In this document: piece by piece, positions 7,129-14,360 of the stretch | Position numbering within the stretch: position 1 is the stretch's first letter | How the letters are laid out: each line of letters begins with the position of its first letter | Assembly (NCBI RefSeq): GCF_058153355.1 | Contig: NZ_CM177019.1 | Length of the DNA stretch: 64,000 bases | Direction: 5' to 3' (one strand) | The notes under the pieces: model-generated | Databases searched by the model: none | What the model was told of the DNA's origin: nothing | The model's input: the letters and a program-made list of their open reading frames with translations, nothing else | Program-made: the position numbers and the translations under genes

Positions 7129-7986
7129 TTAATCCTGTTGTAGCAGGGCAAGATTACGAAAGCACGCTCCCCGCAAGGACTGACGCCAGGTAGTTTCTGT
7201 CCATGGCTGCCCTTTCCATTCACACGTGAAATCAATAAGTTCATCAGGGACATCGCAAACAATGTGAAGACGGATTTCTTCTCTGCCGTGACTCTTTTCA
7301 CTAATTGCGTAACTGTCATGCTCTGGATTATTTAATTCTTTCAGTGAGAATTTTTCCTCAAAGGCTTTATTTAGCCGCCCCTGGTTTCCTTTTACAGCGA
7401 ATAAATAATCACCTCCCTGTTTTTGTATCTTCTCTGCAATATCTTTCTGGCAACCCATCGCATCAGTTGTGATGATTTTTCCTTTAATATCCAGCATGTT
7501 AAGAAGTTCAGGGATAGCTGTAATTTCATTTGATTTCTCATCCGTCCTGATCTGTCCGATGACCAGACTGTGCATTGTTGAGAACGCACTAATGACATGA
7601 ATCGCTCCCCTGCAGCGACTCTTGTCATAAGAATGCCGGAGCTTTTTTCCATCAATTGCAATGACGTCTTTATCATCTGAAGAATGGCAGTCACGCATCC
7701 AGTTAATAAAGCACTCGTGAAATTTTGCAGGACTGATACAGGATACAACTCTGGCAATGGTATCGTGAACAGGAATACCATTTTCAAAATCACCCTATTG
7801 CTTCAAAAAATCGAGATGTGTTTCCCCAAAATCCTCTATATCTTCTCAACCTTCTGCACCCGAAATAACGGCGCAAATAGTCAACAGTAGAATATCCGAT
7901 AATTTATGTTCCACTTTCCAGGCTTGTCTGTAATCGGGGATAATAGAAATATGTTCCATCAATTTTTTAAGTACCATTTTGTTCTC
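7129..7986 (-). pseudogene. Decayed H-repeat (ISAs1-family) transposase: frameshifted and internally deleted
   Basis: N-terminus [43 protein letters not shown] then stop; body in two overlapping frames (7392-7793 and 7129-7698); the canonical C-terminal peptide [12 protein letters not shown] appears out of frame after ...EWKG, indicating an internal deletion. Confidence 0.8.
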
Positions 7987-8370
7987 CTTAATTATGTAAG
8001 GAGTATTTGATCATGTATAAGCAATAAAAAACAGCTTCAGGTAATGAGGAATATCTCAATTTTTAAACATAAAATGCGAATTGTTTAGTACAAAAAAGCA
8101 GCGTTACGTGATCTTTTCCTGCCATGGGTCTTTACCACAGCAGCTGGGGTTGTTTGGGACCGACTTCCGACAGCAGATCCCGGTGAGCCTGCCACCATCT
8201 CTTCACAAGCTTATGCTTATTACATGCAAAACGTCCCGTTTTGCATCTTTGTGCCTACGGCACACGATGATCTTTCCCTGAGGAGTCATACTTTGTTAGG
8301 ATAAAAAACCTTTAAATAGCTTTCCTACCTTCCAATAAAAACCACAGAATCAGCAATGTTTAAATTTCAA

Positions 8371-9192
8371 TCAGTATTGAGTTTCATTTGTGATCTCTAC
8401 ATTCACTCCTGATGGCTTCTCGCTAAATAAATATCTCATACTCTCATTCTCCATAATCACGGATATATTTAACCCTCCATGAATCCATTGATATGTAATA
8501 TTTTTATCATCAATCTTATAACTAAAATTCCCAATTGGTAACTTTTCCTTCAGATAATTATTCTCCTCATAACTAAGTGCTAGTAATTTATCATAGGCAC
8601 CTTTTAAATCAAAACCCTCAAAATAGCAATGTTCTTTTGATGAACCATCAAATTCTTTTCTGGGATTAGCATCATGACACCAAGTCGACCATTTTTCTTT
8701 TTTTTCCTCAGAAGTATGTTTTTTTTCATTGAAAAACAGCACATAATATTTCTCTGGGATTATTATCTGATCATTAATTTTTAAGATATCTCTATATGGC
8801 CCAGGACATTTATGAACAGAATCCATAATGGATATTTCTTCAGGAAAAAGTTTGCCTTCATGTTTAAATAATTTCCTGTACATACCAACTGTTGTTTGTG
8901 ATAAGTAATATGACAAGGGCTTTTTTTTAACTTCAACATAGTCAGTCGAGCATACGAGACTATTTTCCAATGAATAATCATTTATCGTTAGCTTTCGCCC
9001 ATCCATATTTATCACTACCTTACTGTATGTTTCATCAAGGGCACTTATTATAAGCGAATCATGTTTACCAAAAACATCGATATCTGAAACATTATGATAA
9101 ATCCATACGGTATTTTTAGTATTATCATTAGAATATGCGATACCATGAATAAAAAAAATCATTAGAAAGCCCATAAAAAATTTACCGCGCAT
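8371..9192 (-). CDS. Secreted (signal-peptide) protein of unknown function; candidate immunity protein for the upstream effector
   Basis: 273-aa ORF, N-terminal hydrophobic signal peptide (MRGKFFMGFLMIFFIHGIAYS), very AT-rich and K/N/E-rich; AAGGA ribosome-binding site; starts 19 bp after the effector stop. Confidence 0.6.
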   Translation of the reverse strand: MRGKFFMGFLMIFFIHGIAYSNDNTKNTVWIYHNVSDIDVFGKHDSLIISALDETYSKVVINMDGRKLTINDYSLENSLVCSTDYVEVKKKPLSYYLSQTTVGMYRKLFKHEGKLFPEEISIMDSVHKCPGPYRDILKINDQIIIPEKYYVLFFNEKKHTSEEKKEKWSTWCHDANPRKEFDGSSKEHCYFEGFDLKGAYDKLLALSYEENNYLKEKLPIGNFSYKIDDKNITYQWIHGGLNISVIMENESMRYLFSEKPSGVNVEITNETQY

Positions 9193-9211
9193 ACAAATTC
9201 CTTAATGTAAA

Positions 9212-11977
9212 TCAATGTGATGAATCATAAACATTATTCAAAAATAGATTTTGTTCTTTTCGGCGTCGTATAACAAGGCCAGCAACTCCGCCATTTGTAA
9301 TATCAAGAAATTCATTGGAGGCACCTATATAATCCTTTTGATTAAGTTTAGAATTCAAATTCGGTGCCTTACTCATGCTCCCCATATTAAACAATAAACT
9401 TATTAACGCATCAAATTCGTACTGATATAAATCCACACTCACTGTTCTTTTAAGCTCACTAACAAAACCAGATAAACGCTCTTCAAATAACTCATCAGCT
9501 TTAGCAATTGTTATTCCATGCTGAAATTCTTCTGGTAAAACTATATCATTGCAACGTTGTGTAGCAATTAAATGTCCATAACCTATAGTACAGTAACCTT
9601 CTGAATCATTATATGCTGTTAGTTGTAAATATTCCCATTCTTTTATAAAACCCTTACCTTTATTTGATACATTCAAATCTGCAATGGCGATCCTTTCAGC
9701 AGTTTGTTCTTCGTTAAAACTATTGATGTACCCCTCCATCAATATATCAATTGGATCATGTAAATCATCCCGTCTATAAAATGGAGGTATTTGTGTATTA
9801 TTCGGCGGAGGCGCTCCATTGTTTCCTGGATAGTATTCAAAATGCAACATATAAACCACTTCTTCCCCAGGGATTATAACTGGAGGCCTCCCTGTATCAG
9901 GTTTAATCATCAACCCTGTTTTGGCAATTATTGCCCCTTGCATAATATGATCATTAATCTTTACTAAAATACTTGATGGATCAACTTCACCATACCGCAC
10001 ATAGAAATGCCGACCATCTCTAGTCGAGTGCTCAATCGTAACTTGCCAAGTACCGTAATAGTATCGAGAAATAGCTCTTACTATTCCGTTGCAAACCGAA
10101 ACAATATCAGACTTCGGTTCCGTATATAGATCACGCGCTCCATGTTTTCTATTACCATTATTACGATTTCGTCCAAATATAGCTTGAGAGGCATTTCGAT
10201 CTGTCAAGGCAGCAGCCCAAAAATAATTTTTCCACTTTCCATTTTTGTCATTATTAGGTTTTACTTTTAAAGGAAAAATAATTTGATTTGATTTTTTCTG
10301 AGATAATGAATCTAAAAACACAACCGGATGAAAATGCCACACAGCATCATCACTATTAAACGGAGATACCCCGCTCATCCACTCCAGATCCAGCTGCCAC
10401 TTCTCACAGTATGCCACTTCCTCTGTATCCAGATCTTTATAAAATCCTTCCCACCGCCCTGTCGAGCGCCCTCCGTACCATTCGCTGTGGTGTTTAACTA
10501 TCAGATGATTCACCACATTTCTCACCAGTGGTTCACGCACGATCAGCGCCTGTCTGATCTCTTCCTCCGTCACTTTTCCATCACCGTCCTGATCCATACC
10601 CGCCATCAGCTCACGATAAAAGGGCGGTACCTGCTCATACAGCCACTCATCTCCCTGTTCTGCGGCACGGCTTATTGAGTCAAACGCTTCCGGCACCCAT
10701 CCTTCGTACGGGCTGTACGTCATGTCACCGCTGCTGTTCTCCTCCAGCGGTTGAAAACCCAGCTTCAGTAAATCATACTGTCCGGCCTCTTCAACATCCT
10801 TTTGTGGCAGCCAGCCGGTTCCGGTGATATTAAACCACCACTGCTGCGATTCATCCGTGACTGGTGTCGTGGCTTCCCGCGGAAGAACGCGCTGAGCACC
10901 CAGCGTGGCTGCGGTTGCGGTAAATACCTCCTGTCCCGGAACGGCCTGCCGGGTGTATAAAATTATCCCTTTTGGTGCCAGAACAGTCCGTTTTTCTCCC
11001 TTAACGCCTGCCGGGTTGGATAAGAACTTTGGCATATTCGGGTCTGTACTCAGAACCTCCAGATGGACGAACCACTCGCGCTCAATCTCACCGCTTCCCT
11101 CGCCAGGATAATCCTCGCATCCCATAAATCCGACCGGTGTTCCGGCACTGACTTTCCACTCTTCCGTTTCGTCGACCGTCTGTACCGAGTCAAAAATGCC
11201 TTTTGCCTTCGCCTTCTGCATCCACTCAGGCATCAGCATCTGTATTTCGCCATCTGACTCCATCAGATCCGGATCCAGGGTCACCCAGTACTGCTCATTC
11301 CCCGGTTTATTGCCTTCCAGCAGGCGAACCAGTCCGAATGTCGTCAGGACCGGCTGGCCGTTATTGGTCACGTAAAAACGTCCGGTCCGGGATGACACAA
11401 ACCGATCTCCCGCATTAAGTGTCCTGTTTCCGCTGATTTTCGGGGGTATCCAGTACGTGGCATGATCTCCGCTTTCCTGCCCCTCGGGAAGGCCGTTCTT
11501 TCCCGGGATGTATCGGTGCAGCAATATGCCACCATGCCCGGTTTTAACTTTATAGCAGGGGGAGCCGGGATAATCGTTCACCGGGGCCAGATGCATATAG
11601 AGACAGTAAAATTCCAGCCAGCTTTCTTTTTTTTGCGGGTCTGGCTGGCACTGCGATTTCACCAGAACAAATGTGCTGCTGTAACGGAGTTGCTGCCCTT
11701 TGTAGGGGCCTTTCAGGTAATCATTATTTATCCGGTACGCCGCAATGGTGCCATCGGCCATAAACTGAAGAGGAACCGGTTCTCCGGTAGCGGCGGTATC
11801 CGGTTTCAGGGCTGATAACGGATTAGACACGTCACTGATATGTATCCCGCCGTGCCACAGCCCGTTTCCACCCAGCAGCCAGGTTCCGTGCGCTTCTTTG
11901 TCAATAAGCCGCATTATCTCATCCAGTGAGCGAAACTCTTTGCCTTCTTTATCCCTGATGGGATGGCTGATTTTCAT
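9212..11977 (-). CDS. Candidate T6SS cargo effector: multidomain peptidoglycan hydrolase (M23/LytM-like domain plus C-terminal T4-lysozyme-like GH24 domain), with an EF-hand-like loop
   Basis: 921-aa ORF starting 9 bp after the vgrG stop with an AAGGA ribosome-binding site; C-terminus carries the phage-lysozyme signature EWEYLQLTAYNDSEGYCTIGYGHL; middle region has KHGARD (HxxxD) ... YMLHFEY (M23-like); DQDGDGKVTEEE calcium-binding-type loop. Confidence 0.7.
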   Translation of the reverse strand: MKISHPIRDKEGKEFRSLDEIMRLIDKEAHGTWLLGGNGLWHGGIHISDVSNPLSALKPDTAATGEPVPLQFMADGTIAAYRINNDYLKGPYKGQQLRYSSTFVLVKSQCQPDPQKKESWLEFYCLYMHLAPVNDYPGSPCYKVKTGHGGILLHRYIPGKNGLPEGQESGDHATYWIPPKISGNRTLNAGDRFVSSRTGRFYVTNNGQPVLTTFGLVRLLEGNKPGNEQYWVTLDPDLMESDGEIQMLMPEWMQKAKAKGIFDSVQTVDETEEWKVSAGTPVGFMGCEDYPGEGSGEIEREWFVHLEVLSTDPNMPKFLSNPAGVKGEKRTVLAPKGIILYTRQAVPGQEVFTATAATLGAQRVLPREATTPVTDESQQWWFNITGTGWLPQKDVEEAGQYDLLKLGFQPLEENSSGDMTYSPYEGWVPEAFDSISRAAEQGDEWLYEQVPPFYRELMAGMDQDGDGKVTEEEIRQALIVREPLVRNVVNHLIVKHHSEWYGGRSTGRWEGFYKDLDTEEVAYCEKWQLDLEWMSGVSPFNSDDAVWHFHPVVFLDSLSQKKSNQIIFPLKVKPNNDKNGKWKNYFWAAALTDRNASQAIFGRNRNNGNRKHGARDLYTEPKSDIVSVCNGIVRAISRYYYGTWQVTIEHSTRDGRHFYVRYGEVDPSSILVKINDHIMQGAIIAKTGLMIKPDTGRPPVIIPGEEVVYMLHFEYYPGNNGAPPPNNTQIPPFYRRDDLHDPIDILMEGYINSFNEEQTAERIAIADLNVSNKGKGFIKEWEYLQLTAYNDSEGYCTIGYGHLIATQRCNDIVLPEEFQHGITIAKADELFEERLSGFVSELKRTVSVDLYQYEFDALISLLFNMGSMSKAPNLNSKLNQKDYIGASNEFLDITNGGVAGLVIRRRKEQNLFLNNVYDSSH

Positions 11978-11986
11978 GTTCAGTCC

Positions 11987-14186
11987 TTATCGTGAGAATC
12001 TTCCCGGCCGTTGTGGCGGTACCTTATCCTGCTGGGGAGGATCAAAGGCTTCCTGTACACTTTTCCGTGGTGGCTCCGCCCCTTCAGTTCCAGGTCCGCC
12101 ATTGTCATAATCTGCCAGCGCTTTCAAAACCGCCGGTCGTAGCGTCGGCACCGGCGTTCCCGGACTACCGCCGCTATTGAGATTGATTTTCGGCCCGACG
12201 ATGTCCACGCCCCCTGAATGGATGACCACAAACGAACCACCCACCTTTAGGGTGATTTTACCGCCACTCTCCAGTACGATTTCATTCCGGACCTTCATTC
12301 CCAGCGCACCGGTAATCTTCCTCGCCAGGTCGCCCTTCACCTCCAGACTGTGCTTTCCCTCCACCAGGCTGATATGGTTCCCCGTCGTCTTATGCTCCTG
12401 CTTCCCTTCCACCGTCACTTTACGGTCGTTTCTGACATACAGGCCGTCATCGTGACTCACGCTCACCGTCCGGTCATTCGTCACCTTCAGCGTCTGGTCA
12501 TTACGTACCGTTATGCGCCGGTCGTTCGCCACCGTGATACTCTGGTCGTGACCCCCTTCTTTTCTGGTGCCGACCTCAACCGTCTGCCCCTTCACCACCC
12601 TTATCTTCTGGTCGTTACCGATGGTCTCCGTATGGTCATGCTTCACGTCCGTCGTCCGGTCGTTAAGCACCTCCGTGTCCATGTTCTTCTGCGCGTGGAT
12701 ATACACCTGCTCACTGTCCGTCGCATCCTCGAAACGCAGTTCATTAAAGCCGCTTCCTTTATAGGTCTTCGAGCGGATGGTCATCTGCGTCCGCGTGCCC
12801 GGTAAATCCCCCGGTGAACGGTTATCTTCATGGTAGGTCCGCCCCGTCACAATGGGCTGGTCCGGGTCGCCGTTCAGAAAGTCCACTATCACTTCCTGAC
12901 CCACACGCGGTATCGCCAGATTGCCGAACCCCGGTCCCGCCCATGCCTGCGACACCCGTATCCAGCACGAACTCTCCTCCGTCATCCCGTGATAACGGTC
13001 CCAGTGAAACTTCACCCGTACCCGGCCATGCTCGTCGCAGAATATCTCCTCACCCTTCGGCCCGGTCACGATGGCACTCTGCGGGCCGTCCACCTTCGGC
13101 TTCGGCAGCGGCGCGTGACGCCACGTCCTGTCTGCCGGTATCACCTCAAACTGATTGCTCAGTGTCGTCCCTTCACCGTGACTCCCGTGCAGCGCCTGCG
13201 GCTGTTCTCCCCGCAGTGTGCTTCCCACAACCTGCCATTCCCGGTTCAGCGTCTCTGAGGGATGGCCCGTCAGCCGGAACCGCGTTCCCGGCCACAGCCG
13301 CGCCGTGTTACACACCCCGCTCGCCGTCTCCGCCCCGTTCCGCCACCCTTCCGTCTGGTAACGCGCAAAATCCTGGCCATGCTGCTCATCCTTGAAACGC
13401 CCCGGATAATCAAATATCTCGTACTGCGTTCCCTGCCCGTTCAGGCTCTCCCCGTCATGGCTGTAGTACCCCGGCCACCCCGGCGTTTTGAACGTATAAT
13501 CCTGCGTCTCCACCGACGCCACGCTTATCTGCGCACGGTAACGAAACTCACTGATGTACTCCGTCGTTCCCCCGGTCGTGGTATTCGGGTTAAACGCCAG
13601 CGCCCCCATTCCCGTCAGCCCCGCCACGTCATCACACACCGCCAGCTTCTGCTCCGGCCCTTCCTGACCGCAGCGCTCATAAAAGAAGATACCTTCCTCC
13701 GCCCACAGCCGGGTCAGGAATGCCAGGTCGCTCTCCCCGTACTGCACGCAGAACTCCCGCGCCGGGTGCGCCTCATAGAACAGCGGCATCCACGCCGTCA
13801 CCCCGTTCTCTCTCAGAAGCTGTGCTGATATCGTCTGAATGTCCTGCTGCTGGAAGATACGGAAGTTCTGCCGTAACCCTGCCCGCCACAGCGGCGGGCT
13901 GATGCTCAGGGAATAACGCATCTGCCAGTCGTTGTTCTCACCGAGCTGCACCTCCGTCACGATACCGCTGACGTAACGCTGCGGGATATCACCCTGCCAG
14001 ACCGTCAGCACCGCGCTCTTCTCCAGAAAATCCTCCGCCATCAGGTCGGACAGCCCGCTGGCGATATCCACATCCAGGATGAACGACGTGCAGTGGTGCT
14101 GGTACAGACGGAAGCTCACCACCGCCGTCGCCATCTCCACGATACCGTCCACCGACAGCGTGAAACGTAATCCTTCTGAGGACATA
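11987..14186 (-). CDS. vgrG: Type VI secretion spike protein VgrG (gp27/gp5-like)
   Basis: About 733 aa from MSSEGLRFTL; characteristic VgrG N-terminus, gp5-like beta-helix repeats (VTVxNDRxxTV...) and Pro-rich C-terminal tail; the maximal ORF extends 11 codons further upstream. Confidence 0.85.
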
Positions 14187-14360
14187 TAAACCCCATAGCT
14201 ACCGCACTCATGGTGCAAACCATACGGGCTTATAAGAAAGGCTTAAGTGAGATATCTGCCAGATAGCAACTATTAGGAAAATATTTATATATATTTCATG
14301 AATATATATTTCGGTTGGTATAACGGTGTCTAAATATTCCTCTGAACATCTTCCTGATAC

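Follow-up and report, generated by a model that had tools for sequence, protein, structure and literature searches.

A probable periplasmic immunity protein for the tandem M23-like and GH24 toxin module of a WHIX-class type VI secretion effector in Escherichia coli

A 64,000-nucleotide stretch of DNA (contig NZ_CM177019.1 of RefSeq assembly GCF_058153355.1; the whole stretch is called the window below) carries, on its minus strand, an open reading frame (ORF) of 273 amino acids (aa) directly after the gene for a predicted type VI secretion system (T6SS) cargo effector. Our analysis makes it very likely that this ORF (8371..9192, minus strand, ATG start, stop codon included) encodes a Sec-exported periplasmic immunity protein, directed against the M23-like plus GH24 module of the WHIX-class effector encoded 19 nt upstream. 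The synteny of its relatives, its export signal, its divergence ahead of that of the toxin, its retention with a truncated toxin gene in another strain, its swapping together with the toxin domain, and an apparent homologue with published support for an immunity role, SARI_02624 of Salmonella enterica subsp. arizonae (S. arizonae), all support the original prediction, made from sequence, that this is the cognate immunity gene. The family to which it belongs, and which appears to include SARI_02624, is unannotated. The pair itself is of known kinds, a WHIX-class effector (2025) and a SARI_02624-type immunity protein (2026), and in that respect is expected biology.

In this reading, the effector is delivered to other cells, presumably on the adjacent VgrG, and the 273-aa protein would keep the effector's C-terminal peptidoglycan-hydrolase module from harming the producer or its kin, presumably neutralizing it by direct 1:1 binding in the periplasm.

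Position, export signal, and composition

As had been predicted, the ORF immediately follows the effector gene. The two genes are co-oriented and adjoining, as would be expected of an effector and its immunity gene, and 19 nt separate the stop codon of the 921-aa effector ORF (9212..11977, minus strand) from the downstream start. Within this gap lies a Shine-Dalgarno sequence, AAGGA (9199..9203, minus strand), 6 nt 5′ of the ATG; a scan of the gap found neither a sigma-70-like promoter nor a terminator. This arrangement is consistent with a single operon for the two genes.

The N terminus reads MRGK-FFMGFLMIFFIHGIA-YS, putatively cleaved before ND, and opens with a basic n-region, continues with a hydrophobic core of 15 residues, and places A at −3 and S at −1 relative to the cleavage site. 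It fits a Sec/signal peptidase I signal, with the n-h-c pattern and an AxS motif and without a lipobox Cys. The signal peptide, assigned by rule from the residues, would thus comprise aa 1-21 (MRGKFFMGFLMIFFIHGIAYS, followed by N; 9130..9192, minus strand), so that the Sec-type export proposed earlier appears sound. A hydrophobic N terminus was found in 17 of the 17 aligned full-length relatives. Several distant homologues, in Bacteroidota-like loci, have a lipobox Cys instead of a plain Sec signal; a lipoprotein reading of the 273-aa ORF was rejected, since that Cys is absent in this member.

The ORF is far richer in AT, lysine, and asparagine than vgrG, also as anticipated. Its GC content is 0.309 and its GC content at third codon positions (GC3) 0.259, compared with 0.595 and 0.728 for vgrG and a mean GC content of 0.511 for the window; K and N account for 10.3% and 6.6% of its residues and for 3.9% and 3.6% of those of VgrG. 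Equally AT-rich 822-bp segments make up 0.4% of those across the 64 kb, and the global GC minimum lies inside the ORF. A chance ORF was considered and rejected: in DNA of this composition, 273 codons free of stops would arise with a probability of about 1e-11, homologues are conserved, and the fold is predicted with confidence (see below).

Relatives of the ORF and their neighbors

A word-indexed search of 5.8 billion proteins returned five clusters only. All four of the clusters that are not identical to the ORF (4/4) lie directly 3′ of a homologue of the same effector C terminus. Toxin identities in these four are 80, 63, 67, and 75%, against immunity protein identities of 57, 41, 40, and 38%; the immunity gene thus appears to diverge faster than the toxin, as is typical of effector/immunity pairs. 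Adjacency to an M23+GH24 effector extends from these four homologues to 13 further metagenomic loci (about 17 related loci), and adjacency of the family to GH24 toxins is found in about 25 loci across phyla.

An exhaustive profile search enlarged the family to 103 cluster representatives, all unannotated. Hosts named in source records or the AlphaFold database (AFDB) are Klebsiella, Citrobacter, Enterobacter, Yersinia, Shimwellia, Providencia, and Photorhabdus, with Gilliamella, Salmonella, and Bacteroidota in addition. The labels are all "hypothetical," "uncharacterized," or "lipoprotein," and AFDB50 gave only "uncharacterized protein" or "lipoprotein." The ORF itself had no match in Pfam, NCBIfam, or PADLOC; 46 family members gave nothing significant in Pfam, and a profile of these 46 sequences found no match in a PDB sequence search. 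The earlier view that the protein has no recognizable homology therefore holds for annotated families but not for proteins at large, given the 103 representatives. In the same four resources, Pfam, NCBIfam, PADLOC, and PDB, no unrelated function was indicated by homology.

An experimental precedent

An effector/immunity pair of very similar build has been described from SPI-21 of S. arizonae (Front Microbiol 2026, PMC12992299). SARI_02625 is a 1032-aa protein with EF-hand, M23, and endolysin domains, and SARI_02624, encoded directly 3′ of it in a bicistronic unit, is a 276-aa protein with a Sec signal peptide (PMC12992299). Competition assays back their effector and immunity roles, and SARI_02624 partly relieves the toxicity of the periplasm-targeted endolysin domain (PMC12992299). 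The ORF described here likewise sits 3′ of an EF-hand, M23, and GH24 effector. In both systems, the EF-hand, the M23 domain, and a GH24-type endolysin at the C terminus belong to an effector of roughly 1000 aa, and the gene directly 3′ of it encodes a protein with a Sec signal peptide. Unlike the S. arizonae pair, to which identity is only about one-third, the genes here belong to an orphan vgrG island (ybfA-ybgA) rather than to a T6SS core cluster. Neither the effector's WHIX domain nor the two-domain build of the immunity protein nor the wider family is described in that report (PMC12992299).

SARI_02624 can be connected to the ORF's family through its termini. The primers used to clone it encode MKTLLVF... 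and ...AVIIKSGY (PMC12992299). Only one family representative (P0016) ends in AVIIKSGY, and it is 276 aa long when read from an internal MKILLV start. The alignment of the ORF with this representative runs from end to end (256 aa, 33.6% identity, E 1e-43), and AFDB holds a member from the same S. arizonae strain, RSK2980 (A9MN06, 33% identity). We regard the case for including SARI_02624 in the family as strong but indirect.

Toxin module and immunity gene as one apparent cassette

The AT richness of the ORF had been taken as a sign of a mosaic, separately acquired effector-immunity pair. An apparently acquired, low-GC unit is indeed present, and calculation across the region confirms how AT rich the ORF is, but the break lies inside the effector gene (at about aa 550-556) and not at the border between the effector and immunity genes. 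In 50-codon steps, GC3 stays at 0.50-0.68 as far as codon 550 of the effector and at 0.14-0.32 beyond it and into the ORF; the drop is from 0.50 (codons 501-550) to 0.20 (codons 551-600). The GC3 profile thus outlines a low-GC cassette of toxin module and immunity gene (8371..10327, minus strand), with its boundary at effector codon ~550.

Comparison with other E. coli strains places a homology break at the same point. Over aa 1-561, the effector shares 98.8% identity with WP_000703217.1 of E. coli MFDS1022581, a protein that after ...VWHFHPVVFLD (break after aa 556-561) diverges fully into a GH19-like domain; an unrelated 136-aa signal-peptide protein follows it. MFDS1022581 also has a further, orphan fragment, with scaffold sequence from aa 419 onward and an N-acetylmuramidase at its end. 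E. coli N96 carries the same toxin module as the window in a 5′-truncated gene that starts at scaffold aa 382, with the ORF intact behind it (99.6% DNA identity), and this orphan toxin/immunity module sits 3′ of a different vgrG-pyocin-immunity set. The downstream gene, as expected of an immunity gene, co-varies with the toxin domain and not with the WHIX delivery domain.

The sequence ...VWHFHPVVFL(D/N) is the point at which WHIX effectors of the same scaffold part into M23+GH24, GH19-like, and N-acetylmuramidase toxins (window 10310-10345, effector aa 546-556; L001, the N96 locus, 7326-8981; L006, the MFDS1022581 locus, 9611-10668). Displaced orphan copies retain some 140-175 aa from the 3′ part of WHIX, a possible homology arm for cassette exchange. 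Because the GC3 break and the MFDS1022581 homology break both fall inside the effector gene, the toxin module (effector aa 557-921) and the immunity gene apparently arrived together, as one cassette. This is reminiscent of the orphan modules of Rhs and CdiA loci, in which a C-terminal toxin and its immunity gene travel as a cassette behind a conserved junction, and displaced 5′-truncated copies with their immunity gene build up downstream, as they do in N96 and MFDS1022581. Unlike in those loci, the delivery domain here is WHIX and not an Rhs/YD shell or a CdiA filament.

The effector and its toxin domains

The WHIX domain serves T6SS secretion in a class of polymorphic effectors, most of which target peptidoglycan, and the genes flanking such effectors mostly encode signal-peptide proteins, which are taken as immunity proteins (Fridman et al., PLoS Biol 2025, PMC12135965). 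In the 921-aa effector, the domain comprises aa 1-556 (10310..11977, minus strand), with a host-like GC content of 0.50-0.59, and ends in ...VWHFHPVVFLD (aa 546-556); its WHxxxH motif is WHGGIH (aa 41-46, nt 11840-11857). WP_000703217.1, the near-identical protein of MFDS1022581, is present in the supplementary sequence and tree files of the WHIX paper (PMC12135965). From the 98.8% match, the WHGGIH motif, and the M23 and GH24 domains, we therefore classify the effector, by sequence, as a WHIX effector of subclass I whose C-terminal extension carries M23 and GH24 in tandem. It shares with published WHIX effectors the WHxxxH motif, the peptidoglycan-targeting C terminus, the link to vgrG, and the signal-peptide gene downstream (PMC12135965). 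The immunity families named for them (DUF1311/LprI, DUF3828/Tai3; PMC12135965) do not match the ORF, and no accession of a family member was found in the available part of that paper's supplements.

A canonical EF-hand loop recognized by Pfam (DQDGDGKVTEEE, aa 455-478; 10544..10615, minus strand) lies within the C-terminal part of the WHIX domain. SARI_02625 likewise has an EF-hand (PMC12992299), and calcium may play a part in effectors of this class. In an orphan fragment of MFDS1022581, the EF-hand is annotated as a separate "EF-hand domain-containing protein."

The toxin module begins with an M23-like metallopeptidase domain (aa 557-745; 9743..10309, minus strand), matched in part by Pfam PF01551 (aa 611-688, E 4.3e-5). 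A profile of 10 homologous M23 regions matches LytM, ShyA, and lysostaphin in PDB (E 1e-5 to 1e-2), and the M23 fold assignment for aa 557-745 is likely. The HxxxD motif is present (H612/D616), as is a conserved His (H650), but the canonical HxH reads M-L-H (aa 710-712). Met replaces the first His of HxH in every homologue seen. The motif is YMLHF in our effector (aa 708-712, window 9842-9856), and YMLHF-type motifs are also found in L002, L003, L017-L026, L042, L044, L047-50, L099, and L100; the Met-for-His motif spans Enterobacterales-type, Paraburkholderia, Acinetobacter, and lipoprotein-linked (possibly Bacteroidota) loci. The domain may thus represent a non-canonical or non-catalytic M23 subfamily.

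The second toxin domain is a GH24 phage-type lysozyme (aa 761-921; 9215..9697, minus strand). It matches the full Pfam model PF00959 (aa 779-908, E 7.5e-25) and, in NCBIfam, endolysin BgtA (E 2.4e-18), and the catalytic residues E782, D791, and T797 are at T4-lysozyme spacing (+9, +6). In one metagenomic locus (L041, 4824-6358), GH24 and M23-like domains are encoded by separate adjacent genes in the reverse order (ORFs of 228 and 276 aa); a 371-aa lipoprotein follows, and the context resembles a phage-tail-like cluster.

Two predicted domains in the probable immunity protein

AlphaFold2 with an alignment of 46 sequences gave a model with a predicted local distance difference test score (pLDDT) of 89.8 and a predicted template modeling score of 0.60, replacing one built from only 5 sequences (pLDDT 58.7). 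The model predicts two alpha/beta domains (aa 28-156 and aa 168-271) with a linker of low confidence between them. Below, the N-domain is taken as aa ~25-160 (8713..9120, minus strand), with Cys81 and Cys129, and the C-domain as aa ~166-273 (8374..8697, minus strand), with Cys172 and Cys189. These cysteines are near-invariant among the aligned sequences (C81 in 69/71, C129 in 71/71, C172 in 63/65, and C189 in 67/68), and two per domain fits a disulfide-bonded periplasmic protein in which one disulfide bond would stabilize each domain.

Both domains also occur alone, the N-domain in signal-peptide proteins and the C-domain in signal-peptide proteins of 126-156 aa. Counted among the family representatives, nearly all of which have their own signal peptide or lipobox, N+C is the most frequent architecture (47), followed by C-only (<170 aa; 19), N-only (<200 aa; 16), N plus another domain (12), and another domain plus C (4).

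Do immunity domains track toxin domains?

A metagenome scan with the GH24 toxin domain yielded 80 loci, which were scored with hidden Markov models (HMMs) for N, C, M23, GH24, and WHIX and for two more domains, called X and Y. An M23+GH24 effector is followed by an N+C protein in 13 loci, by N and C split through a frameshift in 2 more, and by a protein with a divergent N-domain in 1. GH24 toxins without M23 are followed by N-only proteins in L013 (246-aa toxin) and L032 (314-aa toxin); an N-only protein also follows the GH24 toxin of L011/12, in which the upstream part of the toxin is unseen. A third set of effectors combines a PG_binding_1-like segment, a ~220-aa "Y" domain, and GH24 (L034, L037/38, L039/40, L027-L031, L033, L035, and L051) and is followed by lipoproteins with an N-domain and a different, unannotated "X" domain, or with X and an N-domain too divergent to score. 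Judged from their lipoprotein neighbors, these loci look Bacteroidota-type. The Y-domain motifs STNHMGKAVD and SWIHLDV are reminiscent of LAS/M15 peptidases; such an assignment was not confirmed by Pfam, NCBIfam, or PDB, which gave only spurious WD40 matches, and we do not adopt it.

After dereplication at 80% GH24 identity, and counting only loci whose downstream gene belongs to the family, 16 lineages are left, and C-domain and M23 presence tabulate as 10/0/0/6: the C-domain is present in 10 of the 10 lineages with M23 and in none of the 6 without it (naive Fisher p = 1.2e-4). In a rough, unbootstrapped neighbor-joining tree of GH24 domains, the clade of GH24-only toxins with N-only proteins nests inside the group of M23 toxins with N+C proteins, suggesting that M23 and the C-domain were lost together.

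The simplest reading of this co-occurrence suggests domain-for-domain immunity, in which the N-domain (aa 25-160) would block the GH24 lysozyme and the C-domain (aa 166-273) would handle the M23-like domain, the assignment of the C-domain being the weaker of the two. We give this reading nearly, but not quite, an even chance of being right. Somewhat less assured still is its fuller form, which we nonetheless find plausible: a fusion of two antidotes in one, with N representing a new family of GH24-lysozyme inhibitors and C a separate family of M23-peptidase inhibitors, and with stand-alone orphans in circulation. The pairing rule that would follow, in our estimate equally tentative, is N for GH24, N+C for M23+GH24, and N+X for Y+GH24, with the partners gained, lost, or swapped in step.

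Several known systems are instructive here. TseP of Aeromonas dhakensis is also a chimeric peptidoglycan-hydrolase effector with two activities and a single downstream immunity protein, TsiP, which binds and inhibits both halves of TseP (eLife 2025, PMC11893102). Unlike our effector, TseP pairs an amidase with a lysozyme (PMC11893102), and no sequence relationship of TsiP to the ORF was detected; TsiP would be a functional analogue of the ORF and not a detectable relative. In "double-blade" WHIX effectors, toxins flank WHIX on either side and two separate immunity genes are needed (PMC12135965), whereas here tandem enzyme domains lie C-terminal of WHIX and one fused two-domain protein follows. 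Ivy, PliC/MliC, PliG, PliI, and LprI/DUF1311, like the T6SS muramidase immunity proteins Tsi3/Tgi, are small Sec-exported or lipoprotein inhibitors, often disulfide bonded, that occlude the active site of periplasmic glycosidases, and by analogy the N-domain might act in the manner of such proteinaceous lysozyme inhibitors, through active-site occlusion. Unlike in those families, the proposed target is a GH24 (phage T4/lambda-type) lysozyme, and 0/46 members gave a Pfam hit and the family profile gave no PDB sequence hit.

Counterevidence and alternative readings

A number of observations weigh against these conclusions. With respect to immunity itself, the ORF has no sequence or structural likeness to known immunity proteins or lysozyme inhibitors in Pfam, PDB, or structure comparisons; Ivy, MliC/PliC, PliG, PliI, LprI/DUF1311, Tai3/DUF3828, and Tsi3 showed neither sequence nor fold similarity. 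The link between SARI_02624 and the family is drawn from primer-derived termini, protein length, strain, and synteny, and the rescue in S. arizonae was only partial, with the endolysin domain alone used (PMC12992299).

More of the counterevidence concerns the matching of domains. On the unbootstrapped tree, the association of the C-domain with M23 collapses to about 2-3 evolutionary transitions. Among six homologues that have C without N (P0032, P0074, P0085, and P0093, which stand alone, and P0061 and P0062, with a different N-terminal part), a toxin gene was called nearby in 0/6, two of the six being on contigs of <1.4 kb and one being the first gene of the three-gene array in L008 (see below). 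An A. baumannii toxin with M23 only, of the same subtype, is followed by an unrelated 161-aa lipoprotein. The M23+GH24 effectors of L047-L050, and that of Paraburkholderia phymatum pBPHY01, are followed by signal-peptide proteins that fall outside the family by HMM, the Paraburkholderia protein having a weak match to the LprI lysozyme inhibitor (i-E 0.0055). Finally, with M-L-H in place of HxH, the M23 domain is possibly non-catalytic and possibly needs no antidote. Because of these caveats, we keep the domain-for-domain reading just short of an even chance, and stop at very likely for immunity.

The same observations lend weight to a different arrangement, in which immunity works through a single interface: the whole protein, or the N-domain, would inhibit GH24 only, and the C-domain would be a lineage-specific accessory, serving stability, tethering, or contacts. 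The experimental data on the homologue concern the endolysin domain only (PMC12992299). MLH is found in all toxins of the family, so that there is perhaps no second activity to neutralize; among the C-only proteins examined, none was found beside an M23 toxin; the M23-only toxin of A. baumannii has an unrelated immunity candidate; and the co-occurrence of the C-domain with M23 might reflect mere shared ancestry. Yet C-domain proteins exist as autonomous secreted proteins with their own Cys pair, which argues for an independent function, and the C-domain is missing exactly where M23 is missing and replaced where M23 is replaced. The TsiP precedent also shows one immunity protein inhibiting both halves of an effector (PMC11893102). 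On balance, we judge a single interface to be somewhat improbable, but a reading to be taken seriously.

Could the ORF instead encode a general envelope inhibitor of lysozymes or peptidoglycan hydrolases, in the manner of Ivy, MliC, PliG, or LprI, acting on host or phage lysozymes and linked to the effector by chance or co-mobilization? Some members of the family do stand alone among housekeeping genes, as single genes in L009, L014, and L015 and as an array in L008 (7323-9362). The latter, on a metagenome contig with sugar-utilization genes, consists of three consecutive signal-peptide genes with no toxin near them, for a C-domain-only protein (135 aa), an N+C protein (275-277 aa), and a further protein (172-176 aa). 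To us, this array looks like an orphan immunity island, and orphan immunity genes are known in polymorphic toxin systems (PMC9796082). Adjacency to GH24 toxins is strict in the ~25 loci across phyla, and neither the Pfam families nor the structures of known inhibitors match. Unlike housekeeping inhibitors, moreover, the gene is rare in E. coli: it was found in 1 of 5426 complete genomes, and a profile scan of genome contigs found it on one Escherichia contig only; a tblastn search of plasmids with the ORF gave no match. A general inhibitor is thus very unlikely.

Less credible still is a role other than immunity, as a second secreted factor, be it a co-effector, a surface protein, or a periplasmic chaperone or adaptor serving the effector. 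The absence of a recognizable domain in the ORF would permit such a role, but it is opposed by a Sec signal incompatible with loading onto VgrG, by divergence faster than that of the toxin, a signature of immunity genes, and by the fact that the known T6SS adaptors are cytoplasmic and without signal peptides. A cytoplasmic adaptor or chaperone was itself rejected, given the Sec-type signal peptide.

Taken as a probable effector/immunity pair, the system is a rare case in E. coli of M23 and GH24 joined in tandem behind a WHIX domain, and it points to an immunity family without annotation, some 100 sequence clusters in size, in Enterobacterales, with Gilliamella and Bacteroidota members in AFDB. 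If domain-for-domain immunity is correct, a simple rule would predict which immunity domain counters which toxin domain. The family would then also be a source of proteins that inhibit M23 peptidases and GH24 lysozymes of the endolysin type, enzymes of antibacterial interest, and many stand-alone "hypothetical" signal-peptide genes could be explained as orphan single-domain immunity genes.

The locus and its flanking elements

The region lies between ybfA and ybgA-phrB-dtpD, as judged from the flanking genes and from its DNA match of 96.9-99.6% to E. coli N96. In K-12 this interval is the site of rhsC. The locus thus occupies the rhsC position without an Rhs gene and forms an orphan vgrG island, with the minus-strand order vgrG, effector, 273-aa ORF, group II intron fragment, ISAs1/H-repeat pseudogene, ybgA, and phrB.

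The VgrG/TssI spike gene (11987..14218, minus strand; TIGR03361, E 5e-176) lies 10 nt 5′ of the effector gene. The mechanical ORF call starts it at a TTG (MHHECGSYGVYMSSEGL..., window 14186-14218, minus strand). The true start is probably an ATG 11 codons further in (MSSEGLRF...), since residue 20 is where the match to TIGR03361 begins.

On the other side of the immunity gene, the 7981-8370 spacer contains a fragment of a group II intron, D1-D4 (8079..8196, minus strand; Rfam RF01999, 42.9 bits with a gathering threshold of 36, E 8e-7). At this point N96 has about 1.9 kb of extra sequence, including an intact ltrA reverse transcriptase/maturase, so that the same intron insertion is represented by a deleted remnant in the window or by a full copy in N96. 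An ISAs1/H-repeat (ybfD/ybfL-like) transposase pseudogene with in-frame stops (7129..7980, minus strand) separates the immunity cassette from ybgA, and similar ISAs1 fragments part successive orphan toxin modules in MFDS1022581 and N96.

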